Shown piece after piece: positions 2,950-63,348 of a DNA stretch of 64,000 nt. Below the pieces are notes generated by a model. It did not search any database. It saw only the letters and a list, made by a program, of their open reading frames with translations, and was not told where the DNA came from. How positions within the stretch are numbered: the stretch's first letter is position 1; every line of letters begins with the position of its first letter. Position numbers and translations under genes: made by a program. The DNA comes from a virus (Duplodnaviria; Caudoviricetes), in the IMG/VR virus record IMGVR_UViG_3300042549_001429, positions 933-64,932 of that record, one strand, 5' to 3'.

Positions 2950-3284
2950 TGAAAGACGCTTGCTATAAAAAAGTAAAAGCATCTTATGATGTGTTCCCTT
3001 CTGCTAGGGCTTCTCAAGCTATTGCTAAATGTCGTAAGGCATCAGGCAATGTAAGGAAGTCAGAGGAGGGTACAAGCCTAAAGCGTTGGGAGAAGGAGAA
3101 GTGGCAAGACACTAAGAGTGGTAAAGCCTGTGGAGCCGGAGGAAAGAATGAGTACTGTCGTCCAACGACACGAGTGTCTTCAAAGACACCAAAGACCAAG
3201 AGTGAAATTAGCCCGTCAAAACTTGCAGCAAAAAAGGCTGAGAAGTCACGGGTAGGTATGGGAAATAAAGTTTCAAAAGTTTAG
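2949..3284 (+). CDS. Small basic Cys-containing phage protein
   Basis: DACYKKVKA..FPSA..LKRWEKEKW..CRPT.RVS.KTPKT. Confidence 0.7.
   Translation: MKDACYKKVKASYDVFPSARASQAIAKCRKASGNVRKSEEGTSLKRWEKEKWQDTKSGKACGAGGKNEYCRPTTRVSSKTPKTKSEISPSKLAAKKAEKSRVGMGNKVSKV
3174..3189. repeat. 16-bp palindromic motif copy (GTGTCTTCAAAGACAC), intragenic
   Basis: Exact match to the dispersed motif. Confidence 0.9.
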
Positions 3285-3292
3285 TATATTTG
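3285..3292 (+). promoter_or_regulatory. Bacteroidota -7 promoter element TATATTTG
   Basis: TAnnTTTG about 20 nt upstream of ATG 3314. Confidence 0.55.
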
Positions 3293-3313
3293 TTCAAATT
3301 AAAATCAAATCAA

Positions 3314-3718
3314 ATGGCAACGAAAGTTAACAAATCAAATGCGGAGTTATTGGAATTAGTGCGTGCACTGAATATGACTCCTGCAGAAAAGGGTAGCAAA
3401 GCTGAAGCTAAGCTCAAGAAGATTGCTGAGAAAATCAAGCCAATCTTTGAAAGTTACAACGAGAAGCGTGAAGACATTCGTCTTGACCATGCTCACACGG
3501 AGTCCAATGGTGTATTGGACCTGAATGAGAAAGGTGAATACAAGTTCACTAAAGATGGAATCAAGGCGATGGCTAAGGACATGAAAAAACTTCTTGATGA
3601 TACTTTTGAGTTTTATCAGTTTACATTTTCAACCGAAGGTATCGAAAGCTTCAAGTTCCTCGCAGGATGGGTTGAAGGCATAGAGCCTGAGCAACCTTCC
3701 GAAAGCGATGAGCAATAA
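3314..3718 (+). CDS. Hypothetical protein
   Basis: Start moved to the ATG after the AAATCAAATCAA leader. Confidence 0.75.
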   Translation: MATKVNKSNAELLELVRALNMTPAEKGSKAEAKLKKIAEKIKPIFESYNEKREDIRLDHAHTESNGVLDLNEKGEYKFTKDGIKAMAKDMKKLLDDTFEFYQFTFSTEGIESFKFLAGWVEGIEPEQPSESDEQ

Positions 3719-3803
3719 AGTAAAAACACAATAGACGTAATAAGCAAGGCATCAGCTCTTTTGGGTTGATGCCATTGTTGTTTATACACCATAAAAAATA
3801 ATC

Positions 3804-3968
3804 ATGGAAAAGAGCAAAGGTCTAGGAGATACTATCGAGAAGATAACCACAGCAACCGGAATAAAAAAAGTAGTTGAAACTGTAGCAAAAGCAACAGGCA
3901 AAGATTGTGGCTGCAAAGCACGCAAAGACGCATTAAATAGAGCATTTCCTTATCAAGATAAAAAATAA
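3804..3968 (+). CDS. Small phage protein with CGC motif (54 aa, not in ORF track)
   Basis: MEKSKGLGDTIEKITTATGIKKVV..DCGCKARKDALN. Confidence 0.7.
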   Translation: MEKSKGLGDTIEKITTATGIKKVVETVAKATGKDCGCKARKDALNRAFPYQDKK

Positions 3969-3973
3969 AAAAT

Positions 3974-4459
3974 ATGTCAGTTTTTAAATCACAATTTTCA
4001 AGAGCACTCGCAGTTATCAAGAGCGATAACGCTGACGTGCCGTTTCCTGCTCCTGTAAAATCAGGGGAGAACACAAGTGCCGTAGAGAACGAGCTTGTTG
4101 ATACTGCAGGCGACTTTATCAATGCAGGTGTAAAGACCGGTGACATTGTTTACAACACTACTGATGGCTTAGCTGCTACAGTATTGTCTGTGACAAGTGC
4201 TACTGTGATTGTGCTTAATGCTGACATCTTCGCTGCCGCTGAAAAGGTTTACACTATCTACCAAGCAAGTCCTCAGACTACCATTGGCAACACAGGATGT
4301 AATCTTTACATTGGTGGAGCGGGTAACGTAAAGGTTACTACAATTGGCGGAGACATTATTACATTCACTGCTGTACCTGTTGGCTCAGTATTGCCTGTTC
4401 AGGTGATTAAGCTTCACAGCACAGGAACTACAGCTACACTTGTAAATGCTCTTTGGTAA
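3974..4459 (+). CDS. Putative virion structural protein
   Basis: Beta-rich; C-terminal LYIGGAGNVKV..FTAVPVGSVLPVQV motif typical of phage structural proteins. Confidence 0.55.
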   Translation: MSVFKSQFSRALAVIKSDNADVPFPAPVKSGENTSAVENELVDTAGDFINAGVKTGDIVYNTTDGLAATVLSVTSATVIVLNADIFAAAEKVYTIYQASPQTTIGNTGCNLYIGGAGNVKVTTIGGDIITFTAVPVGSVLPVQVIKLHSTGTTATLVNALW

Positions 4460-4747
4460 ATGAATCCTCAAGAAAACAATAGGCTTGATTATATGGCAGC
4501 AGAGTTAGATGCGTTGAAAAATGACGTAGCTGAGGTAAAGGCTATTGTCAAAGATATGCATAACCTTCTTTCAGGCAACCCTATCGACAAAGACTCAAGC
4601 GGAATGATTGGGGATTTGAGGAAGATGAAGCATGAAGTTTATGAGTTGAAATCTGAATTGAAAAAATACAAGAACTATTTTTATGCGCTAGTTACCCTAG
4701 TGGGGCTTGGCGTATTAAAAGTGATTATTGAAATACTAAAAGGGTAA
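4460..4747 (+). CDS. Coiled-coil protein with C-terminal TM helix (possible lysis accessory)
   Basis: Heptad pattern, then YFYALVTLVGLGVLKVII. Confidence 0.55.
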   Translation: MNPQENNRLDYMAAELDALKNDVAEVKAIVKDMHNLLSGNPIDKDSSGMIGDLRKMKHEVYELKSELKKYKNYFYALVTLVGLGVLKVIIEILKG

Positions 4748-4869
4748 TGGCAAAGTCAGTATCAAGTATAAAAAAAGTTAGCTTCGGTAAAAGAAAAACC
4801 GGTGTAGCTAAGAAATCATATAACAAACACAGTCCAAAACCAAAAAAATATAGGGGGCAAGGAAGATGA
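4747..4869 (+). CDS. Small basic protein ending KKYRGQGR (40 aa, not in ORF track)
   Basis: TAATG and ATGA overlaps with both neighbours. Confidence 0.6.
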   Translation: MAKSVSSIKKVSFGKRKTGVAKKSYNKHSPKPKKYRGQGR

Positions 4870-17321: not shown

Positions 17322-17549
17322 ATGGACATTAGGAAAATATCTGTGGGGCCTGACTACAAGGGTGGTGCGATGCACTACATCGTTGGTCAGAAGGTGCTCG
17401 GAGATACGAATGAAATACACCTCATTAAACTTGTCCCTGAAACGGGGGCAATAAGGATTTATATTATAAACGAGAAGCAAGAGGTTGTAATGTGGAAGGA
17501 GTTCAACCACACCATTCCTTTGTCCATCGAATATAATATAAACATCTAA
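17322..17549 (+). CDS. Conserved hypothetical phage protein
   Basis: IRKISVGPDYKGGAMHY..WKEFN..SIEYNI; AAATCAAATCAA leader. Confidence 0.75.
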   Translation: MDIRKISVGPDYKGGAMHYIVGQKVLGDTNEIHLIKLVPETGAIRIYIINEKQEVVMWKEFNHTIPLSIEYNINI

Positions 17550-18112
17550 TGAGGTCACCATTCTATTTTATAGCGAAGCCCATTAACGGCAAGAGGTACG
17601 ATAACACCAAAATGATTGGTGGCATAGAGTTTATTGTCAGTACCTCAGAAGAAGACCATAAGTTTTCAAATCGTTTTGCTGAGGTGATTGAGTTGCCTTT
17701 GGGATACAAGGGCCCTATCAGGGTTGGTTACACCCTACTCGTGCACCACAACGTATTTAAGTTTTACAACGACATGAAGGGCAGGCAAAAAAGTGGAAAG
17801 TCTTTTTTTAGAGACGACCTATTTTTTATTGAGCCCGACCAATTTTTTATGTACAACGATGGTTCCACGTGGAATGCTTACGATAGGTACTGCTTTGTAA
17901 AGCCAATACCTGCAACTGAGAGTTACATCAAAAAGCCATTTACTGAGGAACCGCTCGTAGGAATAATGAGATACCCTAATGACTATCTTTACAATAAAGG
18001 TATCAGAGAAGGGGACATGGTTTGCTATAGCCCCGACAGCGAGTACGAGTTTACCGTGGACGAGGAGAAGTTATACCGAATGTACGACCATCAAATAACA
18101 ATCAAATTATGA
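17549..18112 (+). CDS. Possible tandem GroES-like protein
   Basis: Two halves, each starting with a (F/C)xxKPI motif and with I+xGxxxxx strands, reminiscent of the GroES fold. Confidence 0.45.
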   Translation: MRSPFYFIAKPINGKRYDNTKMIGGIEFIVSTSEEDHKFSNRFAEVIELPLGYKGPIRVGYTLLVHHNVFKFYNDMKGRQKSGKSFFRDDLFFIEPDQFFMYNDGSTWNAYDRYCFVKPIPATESYIKKPFTEEPLVGIMRYPNDYLYNKGIREGDMVCYSPDSEYEFTVDEEKLYRMYDHQITIKL

Positions 18113-18594: not shown

Positions 18595-18871
18595 AGACAT
18601 AAAGCTGCGTATTATCAATGCGGGCTATAAGGCTGTGAGTCATTTGATAAAAGTAGCAGAGGAAAACATCATCAATAGCGATGATGATAGCGCTGATGTG
18701 GCCGCAGATAAAATGAAGAACGCTGCTGCTGCCAAGAAGTTGGCAATCTTTGATGCATTTGAGATACTCAATCGTATTGAGGCAGAGAAAGAAAACATTG
18801 ACTCCGCAGAGCGTGGAGTAAGTAAAACAGATACAAAACAAGGATTTGCAGAACGAAGGTCAAAACAATAG
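18578..18871 (+). CDS. Putative terminase small subunit
   Basis: Helical 97 aa protein immediately before TerL. Confidence 0.5.
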   Translation: MREDTKDIKLRIINAGYKAVSHLIKVAEENIINSDDDSADVAADKMKNAAAAKKLAIFDAFEILNRIEAEKENIDSAERGVSKTDTKQGFAERRSKQ

Positions 18872-21095
18872 CCTGTGCCGGGTAGTAAAAGATTACATAC
18901 CTGCAGCCGTCATCTCCAAGAAGAATGGGGTGAGGTCGTGGCTTTATGGCTATAACGACCAATATGACGTTGTTGTAATATCTAAGACCGGACAGATAGG
19001 TGAGATTGTAGAAATCTCAGGGCTAAAGATTGCGCTTCCATTGGCTCCTGAAAAGTGTCTTCAAAGACACAATAATAAAAGCGAGCAGTATTGGGAGCGG
19101 CAAGACTTGCCAAAAGACTTGGCCAAGATTCAGTCGATATTCCAATGGAACGAAAAGCCAAAAGAATTTAAGGACAGGTGGATTGATTACATCGAGCAGG
19201 AGTTTGACTGCAGAGAGCAAGGCCTATGGTTTATGAACAATGGAGTTAAGACCTATATCACCGGCTCCCATTATATGTATCTGCAGTGGTCTAGCATTGA
19301 CGTTGGGTACCCCGACTTCAGAGAAGCCAATAGAATCTATTGGATATTTTGGGAAGCCTGTCGTGCAGACCCAAGAGCATTTGGTATGATATACCTAAAG
19401 ATTAGACGCTCAGGATTTTCGTTTATGTCATCCTCGGAGTGTGTCAACATAGGCACGCTTGCACGTGATGCTCGTATTGGTATCCTGTCTAAGACGGGTG
19501 CCGATGCTAAGAAGATGTTCACCGACAAGGTTGTACCTATTAATAGTAGGTTGCCTTTCTTTTTTAAGCCTGTAATGGATGGTATGGATAGACCTAAGAC
19601 CGAGTTGGCCTTTAGGGTTCCTGCATCCAAGATTACCAAGAAGAATATGTATGAGTCTGAGGATACTGAGATTGACGGGCTAGATACCACGATAGATTGG
19701 AAGAATACTGAAGACAACTCATACGATGGTGAGAAGCTATTGTTCTTGGCCCATGATGAAAGTGGTAAGTGGACAAAGCCTGTAAACATCAAGGAGAATT
19801 GGCGTGTAACCAAGACCTGTCTTCGACTTGGTAGCAAGATTATCGGCAAGTGTATGATGGGTTCAACGTCCAATGCGCTAAGCAAAGGAGGTCAGAACTT
19901 CAAGGACATTTATGAAGAGTCAAACGTCAAGGTTAGAAATGCCAATGGGCAAACCAAGAGTGGACTGTATGCCATATTCATTCCTATGGAGTGGAATATG
20001 GAAGGGTTCATTGACAGGTATGGACATCCCGTATTCAGAAAGCCTGAGGAGCCTATTGCAGGTGTTGACGGCAATTGGATTAAGAACGGTGCAATTGACT
20101 ATTGGGAGGCTGAGGTTGATTCATTAAAGAATGACGCTGACGCACTCAATGAGTTTTACCGTCAGTTCCCAAGAACGGAGTCTCATGCATTCCGTGACGA
20201 GAGCAAGCAGGCAATATTTAACTTGACCAAAATCTATCATCAGATTGATTACAACGACTCGATGATTAAGGAGCACTACATGACTCGTGGAATGTTCTCT
20301 TGGAAGGATGGAATAAAGGACACGCAAGTGATTTGGACTCCTGACCCCCGGGGCAGGTTTAATATAAGTTGGGCCCCTCCTAAGCATTTGCAAAATAATG
20401 TACACATCCGTAATGGTATTAGGTACCCCGGCAATGAGCACATTGGCTCATTCGGTTGTGACTCCTATGACATCTCAGCGGTCGTTGGTGGTCGTGGTTC
20501 TAATGGAGCCCTCCACGGAATGACCAAGTTTCACATGGATGATGCGCCTGTTAATGAGTTTTTCTTGGAGTACATTGCTCGTCCTCAGACGGCAGAGATA
20601 TTTTTTGAGGAGGTATTAATGGCGTGCGTATTCTATGGAATGCCTATCTTAGTGGAGAATAACAAACCAAGACTTTTGTATCACATAAAAAATAGAGGGT
20701 ACAGAGGCTTCTCGATTAACAGGCCTGATAAGCAGTTGGCTAAGTTGACTAAGACTGAGCGTGAGTTGGGAGGTATTCCAAACTCATCAGAGGACGTTAA
20801 GCAAGCGCACGCATCAGCAATTGAATCTTACATTGAGAAGTTTGTTGGACTTGATTTAGAGGCGAAGTACAGAGACCCTGAAGAGATGGGAACGATGCCG
20901 TTCACTAGAACACTTGAGGATTGGGCGAAGTTTGATATAAACGACAGGACTAGATTTGATGCTTGTATTAGTTCAGGATTGGCGATTATGGCCAATCAAA
21001 AGCACCTGTATATCCCTGAGAAAAAAGAATCAAAATTAATTATTAACTTCGCTAAATATAAGAATGAAGGTACAATAAGTCAATTGATTAGATGA
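18846..21095 (+). CDS. terL: Terminase large subunit
   Basis: KIRRSGFS Walker A-like, HDESGK Walker B, GCDSYD and ENN nuclease motifs; start uncertain (TTG). Confidence 0.9.
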   Translation: MQNEGQNNSLCRVVKDYIPAAVISKKNGVRSWLYGYNDQYDVVVISKTGQIGEIVEISGLKIALPLAPEKCLQRHNNKSEQYWERQDLPKDLAKIQSIFQWNEKPKEFKDRWIDYIEQEFDCREQGLWFMNNGVKTYITGSHYMYLQWSSIDVGYPDFREANRIYWIFWEACRADPRAFGMIYLKIRRSGFSFMSSSECVNIGTLARDARIGILSKTGADAKKMFTDKVVPINSRLPFFFKPVMDGMDRPKTELAFRVPASKITKKNMYESEDTEIDGLDTTIDWKNTEDNSYDGEKLLFLAHDESGKWTKPVNIKENWRVTKTCLRLGSKIIGKCMMGSTSNALSKGGQNFKDIYEESNVKVRNANGQTKSGLYAIFIPMEWNMEGFIDRYGHPVFRKPEEPIAGVDGNWIKNGAIDYWEAEVDSLKNDADALNEFYRQFPRTESHAFRDESKQAIFNLTKIYHQIDYNDSMIKEHYMTRGMFSWKDGIKDTQVIWTPDPRGRFNISWAPPKHLQNNVHIRNGIRYPGNEHIGSFGCDSYDISAVVGGRGSNGALHGMTKFHMDDAPVNEFFLEYIARPQTAEIFFEEVLMACVFYGMPILVENNKPRLLYHIKNRGYRGFSINRPDKQLAKLTKTERELGGIPNSSEDVKQAHASAIESYIEKFVGLDLEAKYRDPEEMGTMPFTRTLEDWAKFDINDRTRFDACISSGLAIMANQKHLYIPEKKESKLIINFAKYKNEGTISQLIR
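19055..19070. repeat. 16-bp palindromic motif copy, intragenic (terL)
   Basis: GTGTCTTCAAAGACAC. Confidence 0.9.
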
Positions 21096-26113: not shown

Positions 26114-26145
26114 GGAGGGTGTCTTTAAAGACACTCTCCTTTTTT
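26114..26145 (+). terminator. Intrinsic terminator whose stem contains the perfect palindrome GTGTCTTTAAAGACAC (26119-26134)
   Basis: GGAGGGTGTC-TTTAAA-GACACTCTCC followed by a T-tract. Confidence 0.85.
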
Positions 26146-34476: not shown

Positions 34477-34487
34477 AATAAAAAACT

Positions 34488-35291: not shown

Positions 35292-35312
35292 ATTTAATAT
35301 CTTTGTTAGAGT

Positions 35313-35723: not shown

Positions 35724-35724
35724 T

Positions 35725-36552
35725 ATGGCAGTTACAACAGCAGCAGTAGTAGGAATAGCGGCAACAGCCGCAACTACCGGTATGTCATTTGCCCAAGCAG
35801 GCAAACAAAAGAAAGCTATGCGTCAAGCAGAGCGAGATGCCGATGAGGCTATGCAGGCGGCAAGAAAAAAATTAGAGGTCAATGTGTTTGACCAACTATC
35901 TATTCAGAAAGAACCATTTGAATTGGAGCGAGAAGCTCTACTCTCTCAGGGAGCTCAGGCTATTCAAGCCGGAGTCGAAAGTGAGAGAGGCGCTGCAGCT
36001 ACTGCAGGTCGTGTTCAGATGGCACAGCAAGAAGGACAAGGAGCCGTTAGAACCGCAATGGGTCAGGAGTTGCAAGGTCTTGAAAGATTGAGTGCACAAG
36101 AAGAAGGAAGGCTAAGAGACATTGGCGTTCAGCTAGACCTTGAAGAAGTTGCCGGGGCACAACTTGCTGCTGCAAATGCGCAAGAGTTACAAGCTCAAGC
36201 AATGCAACAGGGTATGGAAGGGGTAGTAAGTCTTGCAGGTCAGGTCGCTTCTACAGCTCCTTTATTTCAAAGAAATCGTGCTGCTGAAAAAGCAGCCATT
36301 GGTCAAATGAGTTTTACTACTGAGGATTTTCAAAAGTTTGGCAATGTTGCTGAAAAAGGGGGTTTAGGAGCTCCGGGGACTGATGGGTTTACAAATTTAG
36401 ACTTTAGTGCTGTAAGCGGAATGAGTAATCAACAGTACAACAAGTTTTTGAAAGCGCTTACACCTCAGCAAAGAATGATGTTGTTTACTAACCCACAATT
36501 TGCAAAAGCTTCTGAGTTAATAAATCCTACAGCTGCACGCCTTATTAGATAA
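35725..36552 (+). CDS. Internal virion/ejection protein 1
   Basis: Hydrophobic Ala-rich N-terminus, A/Q/G-rich helices. Confidence 0.6.
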   Translation: MAVTTAAVVGIAATAATTGMSFAQAGKQKKAMRQAERDADEAMQAARKKLEVNVFDQLSIQKEPFELEREALLSQGAQAIQAGVESERGAAATAGRVQMAQQEGQGAVRTAMGQELQGLERLSAQEEGRLRDIGVQLDLEEVAGAQLAAANAQELQAQAMQQGMEGVVSLAGQVASTAPLFQRNRAAEKAAIGQMSFTTEDFQKFGNVAEKGGLGAPGTDGFTNLDFSAVSGMSNQQYNKFLKALTPQQRMMLFTNPQFAKASELINPTAARLIR

Positions 36553-36579
36553 TTGGTAAATAATATAAAAGTTTAATTG

Positions 36580-38310: not shown

Positions 38311-38328
38311 TACTTATAAAAAACAAAA

Positions 38329-49620: not shown

Positions 49621-49847
49621 AGTTTCTCTAGTTCTTGTTTAACTTCTTCCCAATATCTCCATTGTTTATCTAATGGATAAATATGCCAATCAATACAGCG
49701 TTTTATCTCACCTAATGCTATCAGTGCACATTGTTTGGCATTATAATTAAGTTGATTTACAAATAACACATCATCATTTGTTGTTGGATAATAAGAATAC
49801 TTTTTAAACTTATGTACCAACTCTTCTGCTTTTTCTTTAGGTGTCAT
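49617..49847 (-). CDS. Hypothetical protein (MTPKEKA family)
   Basis: MTPKEKAEEL..AKQCALIA..YWEEVKQE; AT-richer than neighbours. Confidence 0.7.
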   Translation of the reverse strand: MTPKEKAEELVHKFKKYSYYPTTNDDVLFVNQLNYNAKQCALIALGEIKRCIDWHIYPLDKQWRYWEEVKQELEKL

Positions 49848-51300
49848 AAAAATCTTTTTTAAAATGGTTGATAGTGTAGTCTTTCTTTTTGGTCACTGCT
49901 TTATAAATTTCGTACTCAATTCCGTCCTTGGCAAATACCCAATAAACTTTATTCTCAAGCCTATCCTTGGTCGTCATCCTATCCTTGCTCTGCCAATAAC
50001 TCGTAGCACTGAAGTCAATGTTATAGTACACCAAGAAGTCAGCGTCACGCAAAGATATTCCCTCTCTACCTGATACAATCTGAAGGGCAATGCTCTTGTC
50101 AGTGTCTTCAAAGACACTCAATTCTGTAGTCAGGGTGTCACCAAATACACTCTTCAGTGCAGCCAACTCCTCCTTGAACTTGTAGAAGATTCCAATCTTG
50201 GACGTACAGAAGTTGTCGTAAATGAACTGAGCCTTAGTCAGGTCAAGCACCATACTGTTACCGCTCTCGAACTTTATCGTTCCACTGCACAACTGATGAA
50301 CCTTCATCATCAACTTGACCGGGGTGTCTGCAAGGATGGTCTCCTCTTTCCCCTCGATAACCAAGTCACGCTTTAGTTTCTTAATCATTGAGTAAGTCCT
50401 GTCGCTCATCTGTACCTCAAGCACCTCCTCAATGGTCTCTGCTTTGAACCCTGCCTCCGCTTGCGTGTAGTTAATCGTGTACGGCTCCATGGCTTTGACT
50501 ATCGTATCCAAGCCACCGCTGTAGTCCTTGATAAACATCCCGTTGATTTTCTTTTGCGTCACGTTCACGTACTTATCACAGAATCTGTAAAAGTTTCTGA
50601 ACTCATCGAACGGATTTTTTGGGATAGCATAGACCTGATGGTACATCTGAGAGTAAGACTCAGGGGTTGGTGTCCCTGATAGCAGTATTACCTTTGGCCT
50701 GTACTTTTGAATCACGCTCGCTACCAACTCTGCCCTGCCACTTGGCTTAGGGAATGCTCCCATGCTGTGAGCCTCATCGCAAACTATTAAATCCCATCTC
50801 TCATTGTTCATTACCAAGTGGAGGCTCTCGTAGTTGATTACCGTAATTTGATAGGATGGCATAAGAAGATTATAGTCAGCCTCAATTGTGCTGATGGCTT
50901 TCTTCTTGGTAATAAATAGCACACGCTGTGCGTGTATTCTATCGGCAATACCTAGACTCGTAAGAGTCTTGCCTGTCCTCACCTCCATGGCAAGGTACAG
51001 GAACCCATGCTTCTCAAGTATCTGAGAGCCTTTCTCGATTATGTCTGTCTGATAATCTCTGAATGTTACGCCTCCTTTCTTTTCCATCTCGTGTAGGTTT
51101 TTGTAGTACTCGCAGCTCCTGATTATTCTGTCTACAGTTTCTTTGTCGGTAGTGTGTTTAGGCACTTTGAGTATCTCTACATTACGACCTCTACCTACTT
51201 TTACATCTTTGGTTTGTGTGACAACTGATTTAAGAATCTCGCATTGCCTCCACATCATCTCGTTACTGTAACAGGGTATGCGTGGTACTATGTCTATCAT
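49837..51300 (-). CDS. SF2 (SNF2/DEAH-like) helicase
   Basis: FRDYQ, EVRTGKT, DEAH, SGTP, EGISL, QSKDR motifs. Confidence 0.9.
   Translation of the reverse strand: MIDIVPRIPCYSNEMMWRQCEILKSVVTQTKDVKVGRGRNVEILKVPKHTTDKETVDRIIRSCEYYKNLHEMEKKGGVTFRDYQTDIIEKGSQILEKHGFLYLAMEVRTGKTLTSLGIADRIHAQRVLFITKKKAISTIEADYNLLMPSYQITVINYESLHLVMNNERWDLIVCDEAHSMGAFPKPSGRAELVASVIQKYRPKVILLSGTPTPESYSQMYHQVYAIPKNPFDEFRNFYRFCDKYVNVTQKKINGMFIKDYSGGLDTIVKAMEPYTINYTQAEAGFKAETIEEVLEVQMSDRTYSMIKKLKRDLVIEGKEETILADTPVKLMMKVHQLCSGTIKFESGNSMVLDLTKAQFIYDNFCTSKIGIFYKFKEELAALKSVFGDTLTTELSVFEDTDKSIALQIVSGREGISLRDADFLVYYNIDFSATSYWQSKDRMTTKDRLENKVYWVFAKDGIEYEIYKAVTKKKDYTINHFKKDFYDT
50102..50117. repeat. 16-bp palindromic motif copy, intragenic (helicase)
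   Basis: GTGTCTTCAAAGACAC. Confidence 0.9.
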
Positions 51301-54294: not shown

Positions 54295-54600
54295 TTAGAA
54301 CGGAAGGTCTCCGTCCTCCTCAGGCTCAGGCACAACTGCTTTTGGCTCTGCCTTTGGCTTTGCCTCTGCCTGTGGCTTAGCGCCACCCTGTGTCGGCTCG
54401 TAGGTATCCAACTCAACATAGTGATTGCCACTGCGGGCAGTCTTAATGTTGAGGTTTACCCATCCATTTTTCTCGTGTTCCCTGATGAATGCTACCGCAT
54501 CGTCAGCCTTGATTGACATTCTCCCCACCACGAAGTCGGGAGCCTTTTCGTTTCTCTTGAATGAGAAACCATCTGCAAAGATTTTTTCGTCTTGTGCCAT
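54295..54600 (-). CDS. Single-stranded DNA-binding protein (putative)
   Basis: Small beta domain, flexible linker, acidic EEDGDLPF tail; next to exonuclease/Sak. Confidence 0.7.
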   Translation of the reverse strand: MAQDEKIFADGFSFKRNEKAPDFVVGRMSIKADDAVAFIREHEKNGWVNLNIKTARSGNHYVELDTYEPTQGGAKPQAEAKPKAEPKAVVPEPEEDGDLPF

Positions 54601-54682: not shown

Positions 54683-54698
54683 GTGTCTTTGAAGACAC
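54683..54698. repeat. 16-bp palindromic motif copy
   Basis: GTGTCTTTGAAGACAC at the exonuclease stop codon. Confidence 0.9.
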
Positions 54699-55432
54699 TA
54701 TAAAAGATACTCGTCAATATAGTAATTGACAATGTCATCTGATGGATTCTTGCCGAAGTACTTATCGTAAACCTCGATGGCTCTGCCAACCTTGGCTTCG
54801 CCTGACTTAACAAAGTCCTCCGTAGGTCTAAAGATTCCTAGCACTCCCGTGCCCTTGTCGATTACATAGAACACCAAAGGCTTACCAAACAACTCCTGAT
54901 AAATGTAGCACTGTGAGTCGTAGTTATAAGACTTGGCCGACCATTTGAACTTATGAATGTCACTCGTAGTCTTCAGGTCAATCACCGCATTGTCTGTTAC
55001 AATGTCGGCCTTACCCTTCCACATCATGCCTTGGATTTCTCCAACCGCAGGCGTCTCATACTGATTGCCATCTTTGTAAATCTCATCGTAGAAGGCAATG
55101 TTGCCGTTGATGATATTGACTAGCGATTGAATCTCCTCCTGCTCTTTCTTGAGCATACAGAACGGTAAGTTGTTGGTCTCACAGAACGCTTTGTACTCCT
55201 TGGTAGTACGTGTGCTCACGTCCACCGAAGGCACATCCTTGGCCTTCTCAGGCTCAAGGATTAACTGATGGAAGTAACGGCCATCCATGAAGGCTTTGTT
55301 GTCCTCCCTCGGCTTGCCAAAGTCCTGAGGGTTCGAGAGTAGCGTGCCAATGTCTGAGTTGGATAGGTAGTTCTTACCGACTCCATTGTAGTACTCATTG
55401 TCGTCACGTAGTTTTGAAATGATATTGTCCAT
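54698..55432 (-). CDS. PD-(D/E)XK exonuclease (RecE/DUF3799-like)
   Basis: YLSNSDI..GRYFHQLILEP..KGKADI..IDLKTT..YDSQCYIY. Confidence 0.8.
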   Translation of the reverse strand: MDNIISKLRDDNEYYNGVGKNYLSNSDIGTLLSNPQDFGKPREDNKAFMDGRYFHQLILEPEKAKDVPSVDVSTRTTKEYKAFCETNNLPFCMLKKEQEEIQSLVNIINGNIAFYDEIYKDGNQYETPAVGEIQGMMWKGKADIVTDNAVIDLKTTSDIHKFKWSAKSYNYDSQCYIYQELFGKPLVFYVIDKGTGVLGIFRPTEDFVKSGEAKVGRAIEVYDKYFGKNPSDDIVNYYIDEYLL

Positions 55433-56110: not shown

Positions 56111-56413
56111 CTAGATAAATACTGAACGCTCCAATTCTTTAACGATTGACACATAGTCCCTATCCTCCGCTATCCTGCGCTCGACTGATGCGATGCCATG
56201 GATGATTGTTGTATGGGTAATTTGGTAGCCCGCCTCACACATATAGCGCTCAATGTACGTCACCTGCATTGGCCTCTTTGAGCATAGGTAATAAATTAAG
56301 TGCCTAGCGTCCACGTACTTTCTCTTCTTAGATTTGGAGAAGAGCTCCTCCTTTGTGATGCCAAACAGGTCGATAACCCGTTCTACATACTGATTAAAAA
56401 CATCATGCTTCAT
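56111..56413 (-). CDS. DnaA domain-IV-like HTH protein
   Basis: FGITKEELFSKSKKR..VDARHLIYYL..HTTIIHG. Confidence 0.7.
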   Translation of the reverse strand: MKHDVFNQYVERVIDLFGITKEELFSKSKKRKYVDARHLIYYLCSKRPMQVTYIERYMCEAGYQITHTTIIHGIASVERRIAEDRDYVSIVKELERSVFI

Positions 56414-58375: not shown

Positions 58376-58402
58376 GATTAAATTGATTTGATTGATTAAT
58401 TT

Positions 58403-58453
58403 TCCGTTTCATCCTTTCGGAATCGTCAGTCAGGACACCCATCCTGATACGGA
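58403..58453 (-). ncRNA. Type III hammerhead ribozyme HH-D (U.U at base of stem II)
   Basis: UCCGUA^ UCAGGA UGGGUG UCCUGA CUGACGA UUCC GAAA GGAU GAAA CGGA; predicted cut 3' of 58448. Confidence 0.85.
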
Positions 58454-58458
58454 GGGCA

Positions 58459-58474
58459 GTGTCTTTGAAGACAC
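58459..58474. repeat. 16-bp palindromic motif copy in extended hairpin 5' of HH-D
   Basis: GTGTCTTTGAAGACAC. Confidence 0.9.
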
Positions 58475-58488
58475 CACCCCTGAGGATG

Positions 58489-59580
58489 CTAGGCTTGGAA
58501 CCTGAGCACCTCACTCTCACTGAACCACTCACCGCAACCACTACAGTGGTAGTTCGAGAACCCGTCATGCTCCAAGTCATGGAAGCACTCCACACACACA
58601 GGCTTCTCATTGAGTACATCAAAGTCGCAGTCATCGCAGTCATCATCAATGAAGTCTAGCAAACTCAATTGGTATTTGTTAGCCACATACTTTGTCTCCT
58701 TCAAGTCCTCCTCCTCGTAGTACCATGCCCTGCTTGTCTCCTGAATATACGAAGTGTGAAACATCTCACCCGCACTCGTCTCCTTGATATTGAAGTAAAT
58801 CCAACAGGTCAAAGACTTACCCTTCACAACAATTGGCACCTGCTTTCTCCTGTACCAAGTCGGGTGACCCTCCAACCTGTCAAGGTTTGCCAACACCGTA
58901 CCACTCACCTTGAACACGTCCACCTCCACATTGTAACCTTTTCCACTCTCGTCAATCAAGTAGGGAAGTCCCCTGATTATAAGCGGATACTTGTTTAAGG
59001 TCTTGCCCTTACCCACGTGCTTGGAACTTGTCAGGTAGCGATTGTAATTGTTGTAGCCCTTCTTGAGCGTACCATACACCGCAACCAAGTTATCCTCCAA
59101 CACATTGTCTTTGCTGTACCACACACCGTCACGCTGTGTCCACAACTCTTTGTTGTAAATCTGATACGTCCTGCTGTGCGTGTTGATAGTCACGAACCTG
59201 CACTCATGCTGCTCCAATTCTTTTTTCCACTTGTGGCGGGGCACTCTCCCGAGGCTCTCAGCCAATACACGTGAGTCACTCTTGTTGACATTACCCAAGC
59301 CACGTATCGTGCCATTCATCATAAGCCACTCATGCTTGTTGTCACCGCATCTGAATGGGTGCGTGTTCTCTTTGTTGATGGCACCCACAGTGGCGTACCT
59401 GAAGTGAGCAATGAAAGGGCGCTCTGTATCTAGCACCTTGTACTCTGCTGATTTGTGATAGGTCACCTCAAAGGTATCCAACCATATTACCCCCAAGCCA
59501 TGAGGATTGATTCGTGCTGAAGTCTTTGCGACCTCCTTGGACATTTGCTTGCCCTTCTGTTTGATAATGATTACACACAT
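58489..59580 (-). CDS. Class II glutamine amidotransferase - gamma-glutamylcyclotransferase - Zn finger fusion
   Basis: True start MCVII (Ntn Cys); NPHGLG, HFRYAT, NTHPF, MNG, SDS; then VAVYGTLKKG..LDRLEGHP; CxxC..CxxC. Confidence 0.85.
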   Translation of the reverse strand: MCVIIIKQKGKQMSKEVAKTSARINPHGLGVIWLDTFEVTYHKSAEYKVLDTERPFIAHFRYATVGAINKENTHPFRCGDNKHEWLMMNGTIRGLGNVNKSDSRVLAESLGRVPRHKWKKELEQHECRFVTINTHSRTYQIYNKELWTQRDGVWYSKDNVLEDNLVAVYGTLKKGYNNYNRYLTSSKHVGKGKTLNKYPLIIRGLPYLIDESGKGYNVEVDVFKVSGTVLANLDRLEGHPTWYRRKQVPIVVKGKSLTCWIYFNIKETSAGEMFHTSYIQETSRAWYYEEEDLKETKYVANKYQLSLLDFIDDDCDDCDFDVLNEKPVCVECFHDLEHDGFSNYHCSGCGEWFSESEVLRFQA

Positions 59581-59602
59581 AGATAGATTTGGTTTGTGGG
59601 CA

Positions 59603-59618
59603 GTGTCTTTGAAGACAC
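59603..59618. repeat. 16-bp palindromic motif copy in 5' leader of GATase gene
   Basis: GTGTCTTTGAAGACAC between promoter and start codon. Confidence 0.9.
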
Positions 59619-59646
59619 AGAACCCGATTAATAAACGAGTAATAGA

Positions 59647-59678
59647 CAAAGATAATACATAGAATGTACATATCCAAA
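59647..59678 (-). promoter_or_regulatory. Bacteroidota sigma promoter (-33 TTTG, N20, -7 TATCTTTG)
   Basis: Both consensus elements present. Confidence 0.75.
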
Positions 59679-60035: not shown

Positions 60036-60082
60036 TTTAATTTTGTTTTGTGGAGGGTTTCAACCCCCTCGGGTTTGAAATT

Positions 60083-60131
60083 CTGTTTCGTTCTTTAGAA
60101 CTCATCAGCCCGGGCACACACCCGGGGACAG
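60083..60131 (-). ncRNA. Type III hammerhead ribozyme HH-C
   Basis: CUGUC^ CCCGGG UGUGUG CCCGGG CUGAUGA GUUC UAAA GAAC GAAA CAG; predicted cut 3' of 60127. Confidence 0.92.
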
Positions 60132-60151
60132 CCGGGAGCCGAAGCCCCCGG
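60132..60151 (-). other. C(UUCG)G hairpin immediately 5' of HH-C
   Basis: CCGGGGGC-UUCG-GCUCCCGG. Confidence 0.75.
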
Positions 60152-60370: not shown

Positions 60371-60913
60371 TTATTGATTGATAGTTGTCAACACTCGATT
60401 GAAGTCCTCAGGTCGCACGACCACGAAGTAATTCGGTCTATACACCCCGTCCGTATCACTCTCCCACCTTCTGTAAGGCACACCCAACGCCATCAAGCCT
60501 ATCTCAATGGGCACAAGCGTGCCAAGGTCATTGCTATGCCACACCGAATACAGGGGCTTGCTATAGCCACCCTCAGGAATCCACACGCTAGACAGGTCGA
60601 ACTCAGGCTCTGCCTCAGGGATGAAGTCACCCACAAAACTTTCCACGTGCACCCACTCACCGTTCCAAGCGTGCCCGTTCAAATACCACTGCCCTTTCTT
60701 TTGCACTATGCTCACGTCAGGGATGCCGTTCAACCGCTCCTTTGTTGTTGGAGTAGGCCAACCCGCATTGGTTATCCAAAGGCCGTCCGTCCTGAACTCA
60801 GCAATTGAATGGCCATGCAGCCAAATAGTTCGGCCATCCGTCCACGTGTTGCCGATTCGTCTGTACTCGTTGCGCAAAAAAGCGCTCACAATTTTTTCAG
60901 TTACTTGTCTCAT
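60371..60913 (-). CDS. Hypothetical early protein
   Basis: LHGHSIA..GWPTPTTKERLN motif recalled from phage early proteins. Confidence 0.7.
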   Translation of the reverse strand: MRQVTEKIVSAFLRNEYRRIGNTWTDGRTIWLHGHSIAEFRTDGLWITNAGWPTPTTKERLNGIPDVSIVQKKGQWYLNGHAWNGEWVHVESFVGDFIPEAEPEFDLSSVWIPEGGYSKPLYSVWHSNDLGTLVPIEIGLMALGVPYRRWESDTDGVYRPNYFVVVRPEDFNRVLTTINQ

Positions 60914-61112: not shown

Positions 61113-61136
61113 AAAATAAAATTTGAAATGTGGTTT

Positions 61137-61187
61137 GCTGTTTCGTTCTTTTGAACTCATCAGGGAGGGCACTCACCCACCGACAGC
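61137..61187 (-). ncRNA. Type III hammerhead ribozyme HH-B
   Basis: GCUGUC^ GGUGGG UGAGUG CCCUCC CUGAUGA GUUC AAAA GAAC GAAA CAGC; predicted cut 3' of 61182. Confidence 0.9.
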
Positions 61188-61188
61188 A

Positions 61189-61204
61189 GTGTCTTTGAAG
61201 ACAC
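61189..61204. repeat. 16-bp palindromic motif copy 5' of HH-B
   Basis: GTGTCTTTGAAGACAC. Confidence 0.9.
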
Positions 61205-61215
61205 CACTGCCACGC

Positions 61216-61434: not shown

Positions 61435-61458
61435 TGTAATATGGTTTTAAATTGGTTT

Positions 61459-61510
61459 GCTGTTTCGCCCTTTGGGGCTCATCAGGCGGGGCAACACACC
61501 CCGCTACAGC
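61459..61510 (-). ncRNA. Type III hammerhead ribozyme HH-A
   Basis: GCUGUA^ GCGGGG UGUGUUG CCCCGC CUGAUGA GCCC CAAA GGGC GAAA CAGC; predicted cut 3' of 61505. Confidence 0.92.
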
Positions 61511-61532
61511 GGAGGGGGATTGAGCCCCCTCC
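61511..61532 (-). other. GC-rich hairpin immediately 5' of HH-A
   Basis: GGAGGGGG-CUCAAU-CCCCCUCC. Confidence 0.75.
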
Positions 61533-61539
61533 CTTTGCA

Positions 61540-62400
61540 TTACCGCAGGAATCCTCGGATGCTATCGCCCTCCTCGCCTGTGTTTATGTAGGCTTGGAAC
61601 GCCTTTGCTAGTTTTAGCACCTCCTCAGCCTTTTGGGCGTCCCCGTTGTACATGGAAAGGATAACAGGGCGCACACGCTTGATAAATGAATCGAAAGAGC
61701 CTGTGGGATTATTTACCGAAAAGTCAACCAAGTGGTAAAACAATTCGTAGCGTCTCATTACCTGCTTTACGCTCTCAAAGCGGGACGGCAAGCGGAACTC
61801 AAGGCAAGAGCCCTTCACCAAGGCAACTTGGTAGCGGTCACCGTAGTGCAACGGGTCTAGGCGCTTGTTGCTCCCGCAGTACCTGTTTGTTAGCCTGTTT
61901 CTGAAGAGGGCAAGCACCACGCCTGCATTTTTGCGCACCTTGCAAAGTAAATCCGTCCCATCCAAGCCCTCGCAGGCAATTGTGATGTGACCCCCGCAAC
62001 GTCTATCTGAGGGGCTGTAGCGGTCATCAATGATTTTTTCCGCTTTGTAAATCATATCGTACACCTTTGTCCTCCATTGCCCCGCAGGGAGCAAAGGGAG
62101 CACATGGGTCACCGCCTCATAGCCGCAGGATGCATCCCGCTCAAAGCCGCAAAACAATTCGTACTCCCGCACCGCATTGCGGCTCAATTGATTTTTCTCA
62201 ATTTCAAAGCCTATGGTGAACCTTGAGGCGTATTCGACCCCGTCAAACTTTATGGCTTTTTGGTCGGCTTTTTTAAGCCCCGCAACGTCCACGCTGTATT
62301 TGGACTTATTCAAAAACAAGGGCTGTGGCTTTCTGTGATAGCCCGCTACTTCGCCTCTTTCTAGTTCGCCTGTGATTTTGTACTCGATACCTTTTTGCAT
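61540..62400 (-). CDS. Putative amidoligase (COOH-NH2 ligase)
   Basis: IGFEIE..RDAS..YEAVT..CGGHI..LEFR motif order. Confidence 0.75.
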   Translation of the reverse strand: MQKGIEYKITGELERGEVAGYHRKPQPLFLNKSKYSVDVAGLKKADQKAIKFDGVEYASRFTIGFEIEKNQLSRNAVREYELFCGFERDASCGYEAVTHVLPLLPAGQWRTKVYDMIYKAEKIIDDRYSPSDRRCGGHITIACEGLDGTDLLCKVRKNAGVVLALFRNRLTNRYCGSNKRLDPLHYGDRYQVALVKGSCLEFRLPSRFESVKQVMRRYELFYHLVDFSVNNPTGSFDSFIKRVRPVILSMYNGDAQKAEEVLKLAKAFQAYINTGEEGDSIRGFLR

Positions 62401-62417
62401 GATTTCTGTGGTTTAAA

Positions 62418-62433
62418 GTGTCTTTGAAGACAC
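62418..62433. repeat. 16-bp palindromic motif copy, intergenic
   Basis: GTGTCTTTGAAGACAC. Confidence 0.9.
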
Positions 62434-62437
62434 AGGA

Positions 62438-63106
62438 TTAAAGTTGATTATTTTGAGAATTTTGATTATTGATTGAACGATACAGGAACTCGATTGCATC
62501 CACTACAGCGGAACTTTCGCCCCCTGTGATTTTTACACGTCCTTCAGTGTCTACTTTTACGCTTAGGCTTTGCCCGTCTACTTTGTAGGATAAGGAAAGA
62601 ACCACCTGTGAACGTGTTTCGACCTGTGGGGCGTTCTCTTCGCCTTCGCCTTCACCTTCACCGCCTTCACCTTGTCCACCGCCTTCAGGGGCATTTTCCA
62701 CCTGCTTTGCAAACTTCAAAAGTCCTTCTAGCGACCTGTTTGGCTCTTCGCCTTGCGCCTCCAATTCATCGCATTTTGCTTTGAACGTGTCAACAACTTC
62801 ATCCTTCAACTTGGATGCCTTCACTACTTTGTAGAAAAAGGATTTTTGCCACCCGAAGACCTTCAAGCCTATTTGCTCATTAGTCCACGAAATGCCTTCT
62901 TCAGCGCAAAGCCTTTGCCCGTCCTCAGAGCCGAACCACTGCACCACCGACCCAACCAACTTGGAAAGGGTCAATGTCTGTTCAAACTTCTTTTTCTTGG
63001 CGTTGGTGATAGTACGCTGCACCGCCCTTATTTCCTGTAGGTTCAAAGCCTGTTTGACCTGTGGGAGGCTAAGGAAAGCCTGTTCGATTGATAGTAAATT
63101 ACTCAT
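62438..63106 (-). CDS. First early gene, hypothetical (possible HTH; G/E linker)
   Basis: 222 aa; WTNEQIGLKVFGWQKSFFYKVV helix-turn-helix-like segment. Confidence 0.65.
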   Translation of the reverse strand: MSNLLSIEQAFLSLPQVKQALNLQEIRAVQRTITNAKKKKFEQTLTLSKLVGSVVQWFGSEDGQRLCAEEGISWTNEQIGLKVFGWQKSFFYKVVKASKLKDEVVDTFKAKCDELEAQGEEPNRSLEGLLKFAKQVENAPEGGGQGEGGEGEGEGEENAPQVETRSQVVLSLSYKVDGQSLSVKVDTEGRVKITGGESSAVVDAIEFLYRSINNQNSQNNQL

Positions 63107-63157
63107 TTTTAATGGTTTATGTGGTTGAATAGGTCAATTGTCCGTCAATTGCCTGTA

Positions 63158-63187
63158 CAAATATAGTCAAAATCTAATTGCTCCAAA
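63158..63187 (-). promoter_or_regulatory. Early Bacteroidota sigma promoter (-33 TTTG, N18, -7 TATATTTG)
   Basis: Both consensus elements at the head of the minus-strand operon. Confidence 0.75.
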
Positions 63188-63332
63188 CTTTTTTTCTGTT
63201 TTTGTTTAATTCTAGTATAAATCTTTTTAGCCTCAGGGCTTTACGGGAGGCACAAAGGGGCTGTTTTGTTTATGTCTACAGACTACAGGAGGGGGGCAAA
63301 GCCCTTTCTCTTTGCCTGTGGGCTCTTTGTTA

Positions 63333-63348
63333 GTGTCTTTGAAGACAC
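63333..63348. repeat. 16-bp palindromic motif copy in non-coding region
   Basis: GTGTCTTTGAAGACAC. Confidence 0.9.

Follow-up and report, generated by a model that had tools for sequence, protein, structure and literature searches.

Gene layout and copies of the palindrome

The DNA analysed here is the stretch from base 933 to base 64932 of a 64,932-bp virus record with direct terminal repeats (IMG/VR record IMGVR_UViG_3300042549_001429, Caudoviricetes); this stretch of 64,000 nucleotides is called the window (W) below. Our subject is a 16-bp palindrome, GTGTCTTYRAAGACAC, which recurs in it both between and inside genes. Up to 47.3 kb the genes lie on the + strand, and beyond this point, to the right end, on the - strand. 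The + strand block includes GroEL/ES, lysis and tail genes, TerL (18846-21095), the portal, the capsid gene (24686-26104), a crAss-type muzzle and a 3001-aa protein. The - strand block, with early and replication genes, encodes an SNF2 helicase, a primase-helicase, a protein like the single-stranded DNA-binding protein SSB, an exonuclease, a Sak annealase and many small open reading frames (ORFs). A PD-(D/E)XK nuclease-like protein and a resolvase-like endonuclease are also encoded. The closest database relatives are uncultured podophages and phages of Flavobacterium, Cellulophaga and Maribacter, and the public runs with the sequence are mainly lake and other freshwater metagenomes.

Pfam was run on the 19 largest or flagged ORFs of the window and PHROGs on 63 ORFs. 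Among these matches there was no HUH or transposase family, and no integrase, for which no aimed search was made. The window has no tRNAs, and no RNA or DNA polymerase was recognised among its proteins by sequence, PDB or PHROG matches. The 3001-aa giant protein (38329-47334, + strand) had only PHROG matches of unknown function; the DFDxD motif was not found in it, and it had no PDB match by sequence.

The original prediction had placed eleven copies of the 16-mer in the window, and an exact match was found at every one of these places, with the central dinucleotide as given. On the + strand the centre is CA at 3174, 19055, 41089 and 50102, TA at 26119, and TG at 54683, 58459, 59603, 61189, 62418 and 63333. 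The whole 64,932-bp record also has 11 copies, and the reversed control pattern has no match in it. The recurrence had been judged not to be chance, which agrees with our controls: none of 100 dinucleotide-preserving shuffles of the window had a match, and a search with any centre and up to two mismatches returned the same 11 sites and nothing else (0.32 expected). The copies are therefore all-or-none. There are 15 perfect 7+2+7 palindromes in the window, and 11 of them are the 16-mer. Aligned flanks of the copies showed nothing conserved beyond the 16-mer itself.

Copy density peaks at the early-gene end of the genome, and the six TG copies are intergenic, both as had been said; the copy at 59603 overlaps only a mechanical TTG-started ORF, inside which it lies. 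The flip of the centre that had been noticed between 50.1 and 54.7 kb is real but secondary, since in the mRNA sense 9 of the 10 copies with an asymmetric centre read GUGUCUUCAAAGACAC. The exception is the copy at 50102 in SNF2, whose TG centre is dictated by a Glu codon (GAA).

The motif copies and the features beside them are:

3174-3189, + strand: motif copy with CA centre in a 111-aa gene (2949-3284), read as GTG TCT TCA AAG ACA C (VSSKT)
19055-19070, + strand: motif copy with CA centre in TerL (18846-21095), about 209 nt from its start, read as CLQRH
26114-26145, + strand: predicted intrinsic terminator of the capsid gene; the motif (26119-26134, TA centre) tops the stem, which is extended and followed by T6
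41089-41104, + strand: motif copy with CA centre in the giant gene (38329-47334, 3001 aa), read as VSSKT at residue 921
50102-50117, - strand: motif copy in SNF2 (49837-51300), mRNA sense GUGUCUUUGAAGACAC, read as aGT GTC TTT GAA GAC ACn (SVFEDT)
54683-54698, - strand: intercistronic motif copy with sense centre CA, adjoining the stop codon of the exonuclease gene (54698-55432)
58401-58455, - strand: type III hammerhead candidate (RF00008, 32.5 bits, E 7e-4 on 10 kb)
58453-58480, - strand: extended hairpin with the motif (58459-58474) at its top, immediately 5' of the hammerhead; -18.8 kcal/mol
59603-59618, - strand: motif copy in the leader of a GGACT/GATase-like gene, -13.2 kcal/mol with flanks, about 30 nt downstream of a promoter-like site (59647-59678)
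60080-60134, - strand: type III hammerhead candidate (35.0 bits, E 1.4e-4), preceded by the non-motif GC hairpin CCGGGGGCTTCGGCTCCCGG
61135-61189, - strand: type III hammerhead candidate whose model position 1 is the last motif base (43.4 bits, E 6e-7)
61179-61215, - strand: extended hairpin with the motif (61189-61204) at its top, adjoining hammerhead stem III; -20.5 kcal/mol, z -4.9
61457-61512, - strand: type III hammerhead candidate (43.6 bits, E 5e-7), preceded by a non-motif GC hairpin
62418-62433, - strand: intercistronic motif copy, in the order stop codon of 62438-63106, 4 nt, motif, 17 nt, ATG of 61540-62400
62438-63106, - strand: first early gene, 222 aa, candidate reader of the motif
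63158-63187, - strand: Bacteroidota-type promoter-like site (TTTG-N18-TAtaTTTG) before the first early gene, by pattern match only
63333-63348, no strand assigned: motif copy within the control region that precedes the predicted early promoter, beside GC-rich TTGCGCCCC repeats

The consensus used for the promoter pattern is that of Bacteroidota sigma-A promoters.

Selection on the copies inside genes

The four copies in genes are read as VSSKT, CLQRH, VSSKT and, on the - strand in SNF2, VFEDT, the frames that had been reported for them. Related genomes (G labels; L labels denote loci) have copies at homologous positions in all four genes; counted from the gene start, these lie at about 225 nt in the 111-aa gene, about 206-248 nt in TerL, 2.6-3.4 kb in the giant gene and about 1.2 kb in SNF2. 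The giant gene has one copy in each of G001-G005, and the 111-aa gene keeps its site at the same position in G002-G006. The Val codon of the latter site is GTG in 5/5 genomes of the GTGTCTT type, GTC in G006 and GTA in G007, which does not belong to the family, and the peptide is identical.

SNF2 was studied with a codon alignment of 71 sequences, 29 of them from motif-bearing genomes. The site AGT GTC TTT GAA GAC was fixed in 29/29 family sequences except for one TTC, which keeps a CG centre. Synonymous diversity was 0.007 over the five motif codons versus 0.39 over 40 flanking codons, where Leu, Thr, Gly and Ala codons were free to vary. Motif-less relatives that have the SVFEDT peptide use GTA or GTG, and TTC. 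In TerL, W, G002, G003 and G004 have the exact site and G005 has it with one mismatch; no motif was found there in MW202828.1, G007, G008 or G010. Its peptide KCLQRH occurs only where the motif is present, and non-family genomes have unrelated residues.

Judged from these codons, the intragenic copies are under selection at the nucleotide level. Conservation at synonymous sites, which had been named as the check on these copies, was thus found in SNF2, and both the differing frames and the nucleotide-level constraint agree with the earlier view that the 16-mer is not a protein motif.

Spread among related phages

The exact 16-mer was found in at least 163 stretches of independent IMG/VR contigs and also in contigs of many public runs, which rules out the assembly or adapter artefact that had been considered. 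Five related records have 19, 13, 14, 16 and 9 copies with up to one mismatch (reversed control 0), so the mismatch scan that had been suggested gave 9-19 copies in relatives and no near-misses in the window. The carriers form a clade of uncultured phages of about 60 kb. Among the 168 exact IMG/VR copies listed, 42 were in TerL context, 38 in an open VSSKT frame and 9 in SNF2, 27 were followed by a T-run (T5 or longer) and 9 by a hammerhead, and 43 were in other contexts.

We fetched 80 loci around homologues of the Sak gene, and 28 of them had at least three motif copies. These motif-plus loci together with the window (29 sequences) gave a set of 172 copies, in which the centre was CA 112 times, TG 40 times, TA 16 times and CG four times. 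The centre was pyrimidine-purine (YR) in 172/172 copies and the other 12 dinucleotides were never seen though the pattern allowed any; each inverted half-site (GTGTCTTY) therefore ends in a pyrimidine. Intercistronic copies lie 0-20 nt past stop codons and 15-30 nt ahead of the next ATG, the latter distance being 60-100 nt where a hammerhead intervenes. On the sense strand their centres are CA 87, TG 6, TA 8 and CG 2, and this bias is an RNA-level or strand-level constraint on the centre.

In 14 of the 17 genomes inspected the first early gene is preceded, at a distance of 100-250 nt, by a further copy, which is flanked by GC-rich simple repeats and a Bacteroidota-type promoter-like site. These early-promoter copies showed no orientation preference (CA 5, TG 5, CG 2, TA 2). 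The repeats just outside the copy in the window are GC-rich short direct repeats (TTGCGCCCC-like, 63350-63470, - strand reading), and in relatives this place is taken by simple repeats of other kinds (CCGTTC, CAGCCAA, CTG runs). The block at 63350-63470 may be an origin or another protein-binding array.

In prokaryote genomes, taken as one per species (185,579 species), the exact 16-mer gave scattered single matches in unrelated phyla among the matches listed, as chance predicts. The cellular contigs with several copies are phage-like, namely a contig of a Cytophagales metagenome-assembled genome (MAG) and a contig of a Flavobacteriaceae MAG with two copies. The former, WTJX01000555.1 (L420-L423, L452), is 56 kb long, and a 10-kb part of it has at least five exact copies. 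This contig probably represents the genome of a related phage and hints at the host group. Among cultured phages, Flavobacterium phage elemoF 6-3D is without the motif (one chance-level match with two mismatches), and Maribacter phage Panino had no motif match. The 16-mer appeared in no paper in a full-text literature search, and our literature searches did not find a description of this element.

In the related genome G008 (L277-L280), which lacks the palindrome, a different intergenic motif of 24 nt that is not palindromic, TAACACCAGATAAAATTAATTGCT, recurs five times in the early region (33095-39260). Repeated 11-mers of loci L269 and L260 were considered as lineage palindromes and rejected: one is pentapeptide-repeat coding sequence and the other is a 24-nt non-palindromic intergenic motif. 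In one DNA run (X1) the contigs break and resume exactly at two motif copies, 58450-58479 and 59603-59622. Strain variants with a common repeat are the simplest explanation, and the breaks are a reminder that such palindromes fragment assemblies.

Specificity variants in sister lineages

The phage MW202828.1 has 71% nucleotide identity to the window over packaging and capsid genes. The GTGTCTT type is absent from it, and GTGTCGTTAACGACAC, in which pair 6/11 is changed symmetrically, occurs 14 times. Its usual layout is TAA, 3-4 nt, motif, an A/C-rich leader of about 20 nt, and ATG. A second variant, GTCTCTTYRAAGAGAC (GTCTCTT..AAGAGAC, changed at pair 3/14), was found in G006, G009, G010 and G011, with 10, 10, 6 and 3 sites of the GTCTCYTYRARGAGAC type, respectively, and the GTGTCTT type was absent from G009-G011. 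Four of the 10 sites of G006 have one mismatch, and two of those four are half-converted hybrids.

The change extends to coding sites and alters the proteins. In G006 the TerL site is gaG TCT CTT CAA AGA GAC, with ESLQRD for KCLQRH, and G006 and G009 both have their own variant (SLQRD) in TerL. The SNF2 site of G006/L225 is AGT CTC TTT GAA GAG ACC, with SLFEET for SVFEDT. The hairpin behind the capsid gene is motif-based in G001-G006 and G009, and its arms are of the variant type in G006 and G009. At the 111-aa gene of G006 the left half only was converted, by the synonymous change GTG>GTC, and the hairpin pair is broken.

One-mismatch variants are rare (n=20), and 17 of them fall at pair 6/11, which appears to be a soft position; on the + strand they give 8 G.U and 9 C.A. 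From the coordinated change at dispersed sites, together with the broken pair, it follows that hairpin stability is an insufficient explanation and that a sequence-specific trans factor would suffice. Gene conversion is unlikely because the copies have no common flanks: as we see it, a 16-nt repeat offers no flanking homology for the conversion of its own inner bases.

Hairpins, hammerheads and the capsid terminator

Rfam at gathering thresholds gave no match in the whole window. A permissive Rfam search of 54-64 kb with RF00008 (gathering score 48.5) showed four full-length type III hammerhead candidates in intergenic gaps on the - strand, with 32.5-43.6 bits. All are under the gathering score, so standard annotation would miss them. 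Their alignments cover model positions 1-54 with the CUGANGA ... GAAA core, stems I-III, an open stem III and a GUC/GUA triplet. Two of the four begin at the last motif base or 3 nt past it, and the other two follow unrelated GC hairpins.

The same arrangement is present in relatives. In the 172-copy set the CUGANGA...GAAA core lies 23-30 nt downstream of 57 copies in sense and of none in antisense, and copies next to a hammerhead never have a TG centre. Our census of hammerhead-like sites gave 108, all on the sense strand, and a hairpin is directly upstream in 108/108; the hairpin is the motif in 63 of them. Among the 83 hammerheads of motif-plus loci, the motif precedes 61 and another stable hairpin precedes 22, and in motif-minus loci all 17 are preceded by other hairpins. 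Hairpin plus hammerhead is thus a module found generally between cistrons in this phage group, and the hairpin of this lineage is mostly built from the motif. Beside hammerheads the stems are lengthened by 3-5 pairs, including G.U pairs possible only in sense RNA (for example gggtgGTGTC..GACACtgccc). The fold energy of the bare 16-mer is -5.6 kcal/mol versus -18.8 and -20.5 kcal/mol for the extended forms.

At 26119 the palindrome sits 14 nt past the capsid gene in the stem GGAGgGTGTC..GACACtCTCC followed by T6 (-18.2 kcal/mol, z -5.5), which agrees with its earlier designation as the stem of the capsid terminator. No U-run follows the other 10 copies of the window. From predicted folds and positions, the palindrome appears to be used also as RNA, in the hairpin of the hammerhead module and in the capsid terminator stem; such a reuse beside ribozymes and in the terminator had been proposed, and both the hammerhead-adjacent copies and the terminator fold bear it out. 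Two RNA-library runs have small parts of the early region as contigs only, without ends or strand, and two of these contigs span 54683.

Candidate reader protein

The best candidate for a protein that reads the motif is the first early protein, of 222 aa, encoded at 62438-63106. Four ORFs had been named earlier as possible readers, and this one is the best of the four. Another of them, a DnaA_C-like 100-aa protein (56111-56413), shows no covariation with motif type: genomes of different types have an identical recognition segment in it, and we rejected it as the specificity factor. A 180-aa protein (60371-60913) was also rejected as reader, being missing from G002, G006 and MW202828.1.

Homologues of the first early protein were found in G001-G006, MW202828.1 and G009 and were not detected in G007 and G008. 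Of the complete genomes tested that have the motif or a variant, only G010 gave no homologue. Among loci, the protein was found in 20 of 28 motif-plus versus 3 of 42 motif-minus ones, a comparison confounded by phylogeny and locus truncation. The family is large (928 matches) and unannotated, with no Pfam domain. In the AlphaFold2 model (mean pLDDT 79) a helical domain with a helix-turn-helix (residues 76-98) is followed by a disordered acidic Gly/Glu linker and a beta-beta-beta-alpha C-domain, and the latter has weak PUR-repeat matches (probability 0.54).

The homodimer prediction scored 0.62 versus 0.00 for the best of three controls. Of 30 proteins whose structures were solved as pairs of one chain, 20 attain this mark of 0.62, as does 1 of 23 solved as single chains. 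In three dimer runs at least 97% of the contacts were common and the partner pLDDT was at least 79. The predicted interface involves N-terminal helices and the C-domain and leaves the helix-turn-helix mostly free. The second helix, GWQKS(F/Y)(F/Y)YK (GWQKSFFYK), is kept in most genomes of the GTGTCTT type, down to about 40% overall identity, and differs in the variant genomes: GWNKSYLFK in G006, CISKAHFYR in G009 and GLSKAQGHK in MW202828.1. In a structural search against representatives the best long matches, which are weak and stand on a background of coiled coils, were the DNA-binding domains of Spo0J (1vz0_A, Z 5.2, rmsd 3.6, 98 aligned) and KorB (8qa8_A, Z 4.8, rmsd 3.0, 83 aligned). The nearest named clusters in the ESM Atlas were DUF3102, at 0.91 but with just 133-139 features in common; we take this as no more than a lead.

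Interpretation

We propose that GTGTCTTYRAAGACAC is an operator for a phage homodimer which is also used as an RNA hairpin, and we give this proposal about an even chance of being right. The two inverted half-sites GTGTCTTY would form a lineage-specific cis element, read sequence-specifically by a phage-encoded homodimer, most likely on double-stranded DNA. The layout of the sites, upstream of the presumed reader's own promoter, after the stops of early cistrons, behind the capsid gene and inside four genes, is like that of dispersed operators read by a global regulator or organiser of the KorB/OB, parS or stoperator kind. Binding might serve autoregulation of the candidate reader and control of read-through in the early operon. 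With 3-5 extra flanking pairs the palindrome would form a hairpin adjoining hammerhead stem III, and after self-cleavage this hairpin would remain close to the 3' end of the upstream mRNA; with a U-run it would act as the capsid terminator. We infer the binding to double-stranded DNA, the identity of the reader and the effect of binding. Duplex DNA and a symmetric dimer are favoured because the promoter copy is free in orientation, the YR rule is symmetric and a half-converted site exists. The site of a dimeric DNA-binding protein had been suggested before; two-fold symmetry of the half-sites (YR centre, symmetric variants) and a plausible predicted homodimer speak for such a dimer, which might read either DNA or RNA.

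Several observations weigh against this proposal. The sense bias of the centre, CA 87 versus TG 6, fits a reader of an RNA hairpin equally well, and the constant absence of TG beside hammerheads and the sense-only G.U extensions fit such a reader too. Half-converted hybrids occur only in G006 (2/10 sites) and not in G009 or G010, and the proposal gives the sites inside late genes no role. For the reader itself, no homologue of 62438-63106 was detected in G010 despite its six variant sites. Two exceptions of the GTGTCTT type have a different helix, G001 (GFDKSWLYK) and L215 (GWKNSYFCK), and the covariation of helix and motif rests on few lineages and is confounded by phylogeny. Z values of about 5 are within noise for helical proteins, the protein had no DNA-binding family match in the Pfam or PDB profile search, and Foldseek against PDB gave nothing below E 0.1.

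It is possible, though we hold it unlikely, that the RNA hairpin and not the DNA is recognised. The palindrome would then be a standard stem-loop of mRNA 3' ends, exposed by hammerhead cleavage or exonuclease trimming, and an RNA-binding protein of phage or host origin would bind it and thereby stabilise or regulate each cistron, as SLBP does with the histone stem-loop or the N protein with boxB. This would explain why copies are set 0-20 nt past stops and before the next ATG, why the centre is biased in sense (CA 87, TG 6), why 57/172 copies are followed by a hammerhead in sense only, and why stem extensions include sense-only G.U pairs. The one-mismatch variants beside hammerheads are G.U in sense RNA in 5/5 cases, genome-wide covariation is compatible with any sequence-specific reader, and the candidate C-domain has its weak PUR-repeat matches (0.54). 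However, a copy is conserved upstream of the predicted early promoter with random orientation of its centre, ribosomes would unwind the copies in ORFs, and the loop of the SNF2 copy (UUGA) is the 'wrong' one. The YR rule is symmetric, the synonymous change in G006 converted one half-site and broke the pair, and all one-mismatch variants taken on the + strand give 8 G.U versus 9 C.A. Seven stem pairs that are invariant per genome would also be unusual if mainly the loop were read.

A combination of both, in which one early protein and one 16-nt address are involved and the address is a duplex operator or organiser as well as an RNA stem-loop read by the same or a partner protein, is a doubtful idea that we rate rather low. 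If true, it would be a viral counterpart of the histone stem-loop/SLBP mark, and the GTGTCTT, GTCTCTT and GTGTCGT specificities would track changes of the recognition helix.

It is improbable that the palindrome is a signal in single-stranded DNA, a hairpin or cruciform serving as an N4-type promoter, in replication or priming, or as a nick or packaging site for a structure-specific phage enzyme. The 7-bp arms around the T-YR-A centre could extrude, a primase-helicase, an SSB-like protein, a PD-(D/E)XK nuclease-like protein and a resolvase-like endonuclease are encoded, and copies are densest at the early-gene end. But host-type promoter-like sites exist, half-converted sites do not fold, and hammerhead stem III begins at the last motif base, so that RNA must run through the motif. 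A virion RNA polymerase with a hairpin promoter was rejected: no RNA polymerase was recognised, and the giant protein has neither DFDxD nor a PDB match nor a PHROG match to a polymerase or any other known function.

Even less probable is a plain intercistronic hairpin or terminator cassette without any trans factor, copied and kept by descent (PeSL- or REP-like). Other GC hairpins do stand before 2/4 hammerheads of the window, 22/83 of motif-plus loci and 17/17 of motif-minus loci, and relatives without the motif are viable. Such a cassette does not account for exact identity without near-misses, for frozen synonymous sites in four genes, or for a coordinated change of pair 3/14 or 6/11 at dispersed sites, including coding sites with amino-acid replacements; moreover, the copies have no common flanks and hence form no cassette. 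Least probable of all, and in our view very improbable, is that the palindrome is bound by, or acts as a decoy for, a host protein such as a regulator or nuclease of Bacteroidota: lineage variants could follow different hosts and the phage appears dependent on host RNA and DNA polymerases, but cellular matches are scattered singles and the multi-copy contigs are phage-like among the matches listed, so the host-factor decoy that had been listed as an option is unsupported.

Other features of the genome

GroEL and GroES homologues and a second GroES-like protein of 187 aa are encoded in the window (86-1440 and 17549-18112, both + strand). The giant protein occupies the slot of the crAss-like virion RNA polymerase, and its length is from 2317 to 3859 aa among relatives. 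The 101-aa protein at 54295-54600 (- strand) is present in all relatives, has an acidic D-L-P-F end like the C-terminal tip of bacterial SSB and, judged from its sequence, is probably the phage SSB. The gene at 58489-59649 (- strand) encodes a GATase-like plus GGACT (gamma-glutamyl cyclotransferase-like) protein, and 61540-62400 (- strand) encodes a 286-aa protein that may, judged from its sequence, be amidoligase-like. Both are found in G001-G006 and MW202828.1 and not in G007 or G008.

The A-rich word AATCAAATCAA occurs 4-12 times per 20-kb locus just before start codons, in many loci (e.g. 58376-58400). It is probably a leader without Shine-Dalgarno sequence or a translation-initiation context of these Bacteroidota phages. 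Repeats of AAAACGACAT / AAAATCGACAT are present near the right terminus (63940-64000 and loci L203, L210 and L211), with 4-6 copies in some relatives, and may be a terminal-repeat or packaging-related signal.

Meaning and comparison with known systems

Phage-wide palindromic repeats, dispersed operators and clustered phage hammerheads are already known. The new aspects are natural specificity switches with a named candidate reader, and the fusion of the palindrome with a hairpin-hammerhead processing module. Multi-copy phage palindromes have been noted before, for example in Cluster O mycobacteriophages, without a handle on reader or role. This clade offers natural experiments in the form of three specificity types, frozen synonymous sites in four conserved genes and a half-converted site. 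Together with a few candidate readers, foremost the predicted homodimer of the first early gene, they make the question directly testable. A hairpin standardised to the presumed operator sequence would let a DNA signal and an RNA signal overlap economically. The results could aid the annotation of uncultured Bacteroidota phages and the design of orthogonal protein/site pairs.

KorB operators (OB) of plasmid RK2 and parS/ParB sites are perfect palindromes of 13-16 bp in about 10 copies, dispersed and often intragenic or far from promoters. They are read by a dimeric helix-turn-helix protein, which regulates itself and many operons or organises DNA. The multiple dispersed perfect palindromes described here, with intragenic ones kept at the nucleotide level, are like these sites. 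Unlike them, there was no ParB match among the 63 ORFs by Pfam or PHROG, the candidate is by sequence without an N-terminal ParB-like (CTPase) domain and has weak structural similarity to Spo0J and KorB, a ParA/IncC ATPase was not found among the Pfam (19 ORFs) and PHROG (63 ORFs) matches, and the element is a lytic phage and not a plasmid such as RK2.

RNase III sites of the T7 early transcript are intercistronic hairpins that leave a protective 3' stem-loop on each processed mRNA, and the histone mRNA stem-loop is a 16-nt element with a 6-bp stem and a 4-nt loop that is read by the dedicated protein SLBP. The likeness to both is a functional analogy only: cleavage here would be by the predicted ribozymes and not by RNase III or U7 snRNP, and some copies are in DNA contexts that are probably untranscribed. 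The phage N4 hairpin promoter has a 5-7 bp stem and a 3-nt loop; here the loop is 2 or 4 nt, and no polymerase was recognised. Phage phi14:2 is reported to have no common motif upstream of early transcripts (10.1101/2020.03.07.982082), so this phage gives no precedent for the hairpin-promoter idea.

In phages and prophages, clustered intergenic hammerheads flank single genes in a long transcript, which points to processing into gene-length mRNAs (Perreault et al. 2011, PMC3088659). Unlike those clusters, a hairpin adjoins stem III here in 108/108 sites and is the motif in 63 of them, a feature unmentioned in the accessible part of that paper. T4-type PeSL cassettes have conserved short motifs, including a stem-loop, between early genes, and are described, in what we could consult of these sources, as composite promoter-terminator cassettes thought to drive gene shuffling (PMC2839356, PMC4122927). 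As far as those descriptions go, our case is unlike them: only the 16-mer is common, a promoter part is absent and copies are inside conserved genes.

Stoperators are asymmetric, strictly transcription-oriented sites of temperate phages, unlike the symmetric site here, whose genome had no integrase among Pfam/PHROG matches (not specifically sought). In Cluster A they are dozens of identical repressor sites in short intergenic operon gaps, thought to stop elongation (PMC4351075, in the part available to us). The same part of that source describes the closest case, the 17-bp palindromes 5'-TGTTCGGNNNCCGAACA of Cluster O mycobacteriophages, with more than 30 copies of unknown function and a predicted dimeric DNA-binding protein. 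In both, the 7-bp inverted arms are invariant while the short centre varies, and the copies are numerous, with about a third of them in ORFs. Both are denser toward one genome end, have no tie to promoters or rearrangement junctions, and belong to apparently lytic phages. Hammerhead coupling with a strong sense bias between cistrons, frozen homologous intragenic sites and lineages of switched specificity are present here and, in so far as that text covers it, unreported for Cluster O. The centre here is a YR of 2 bp and there 3 bp, and copies number 9-19 here and more than 30 there. Sequence, host phylum and phage group are unrelated, and the likeness between the two is one of kind and not of descent.

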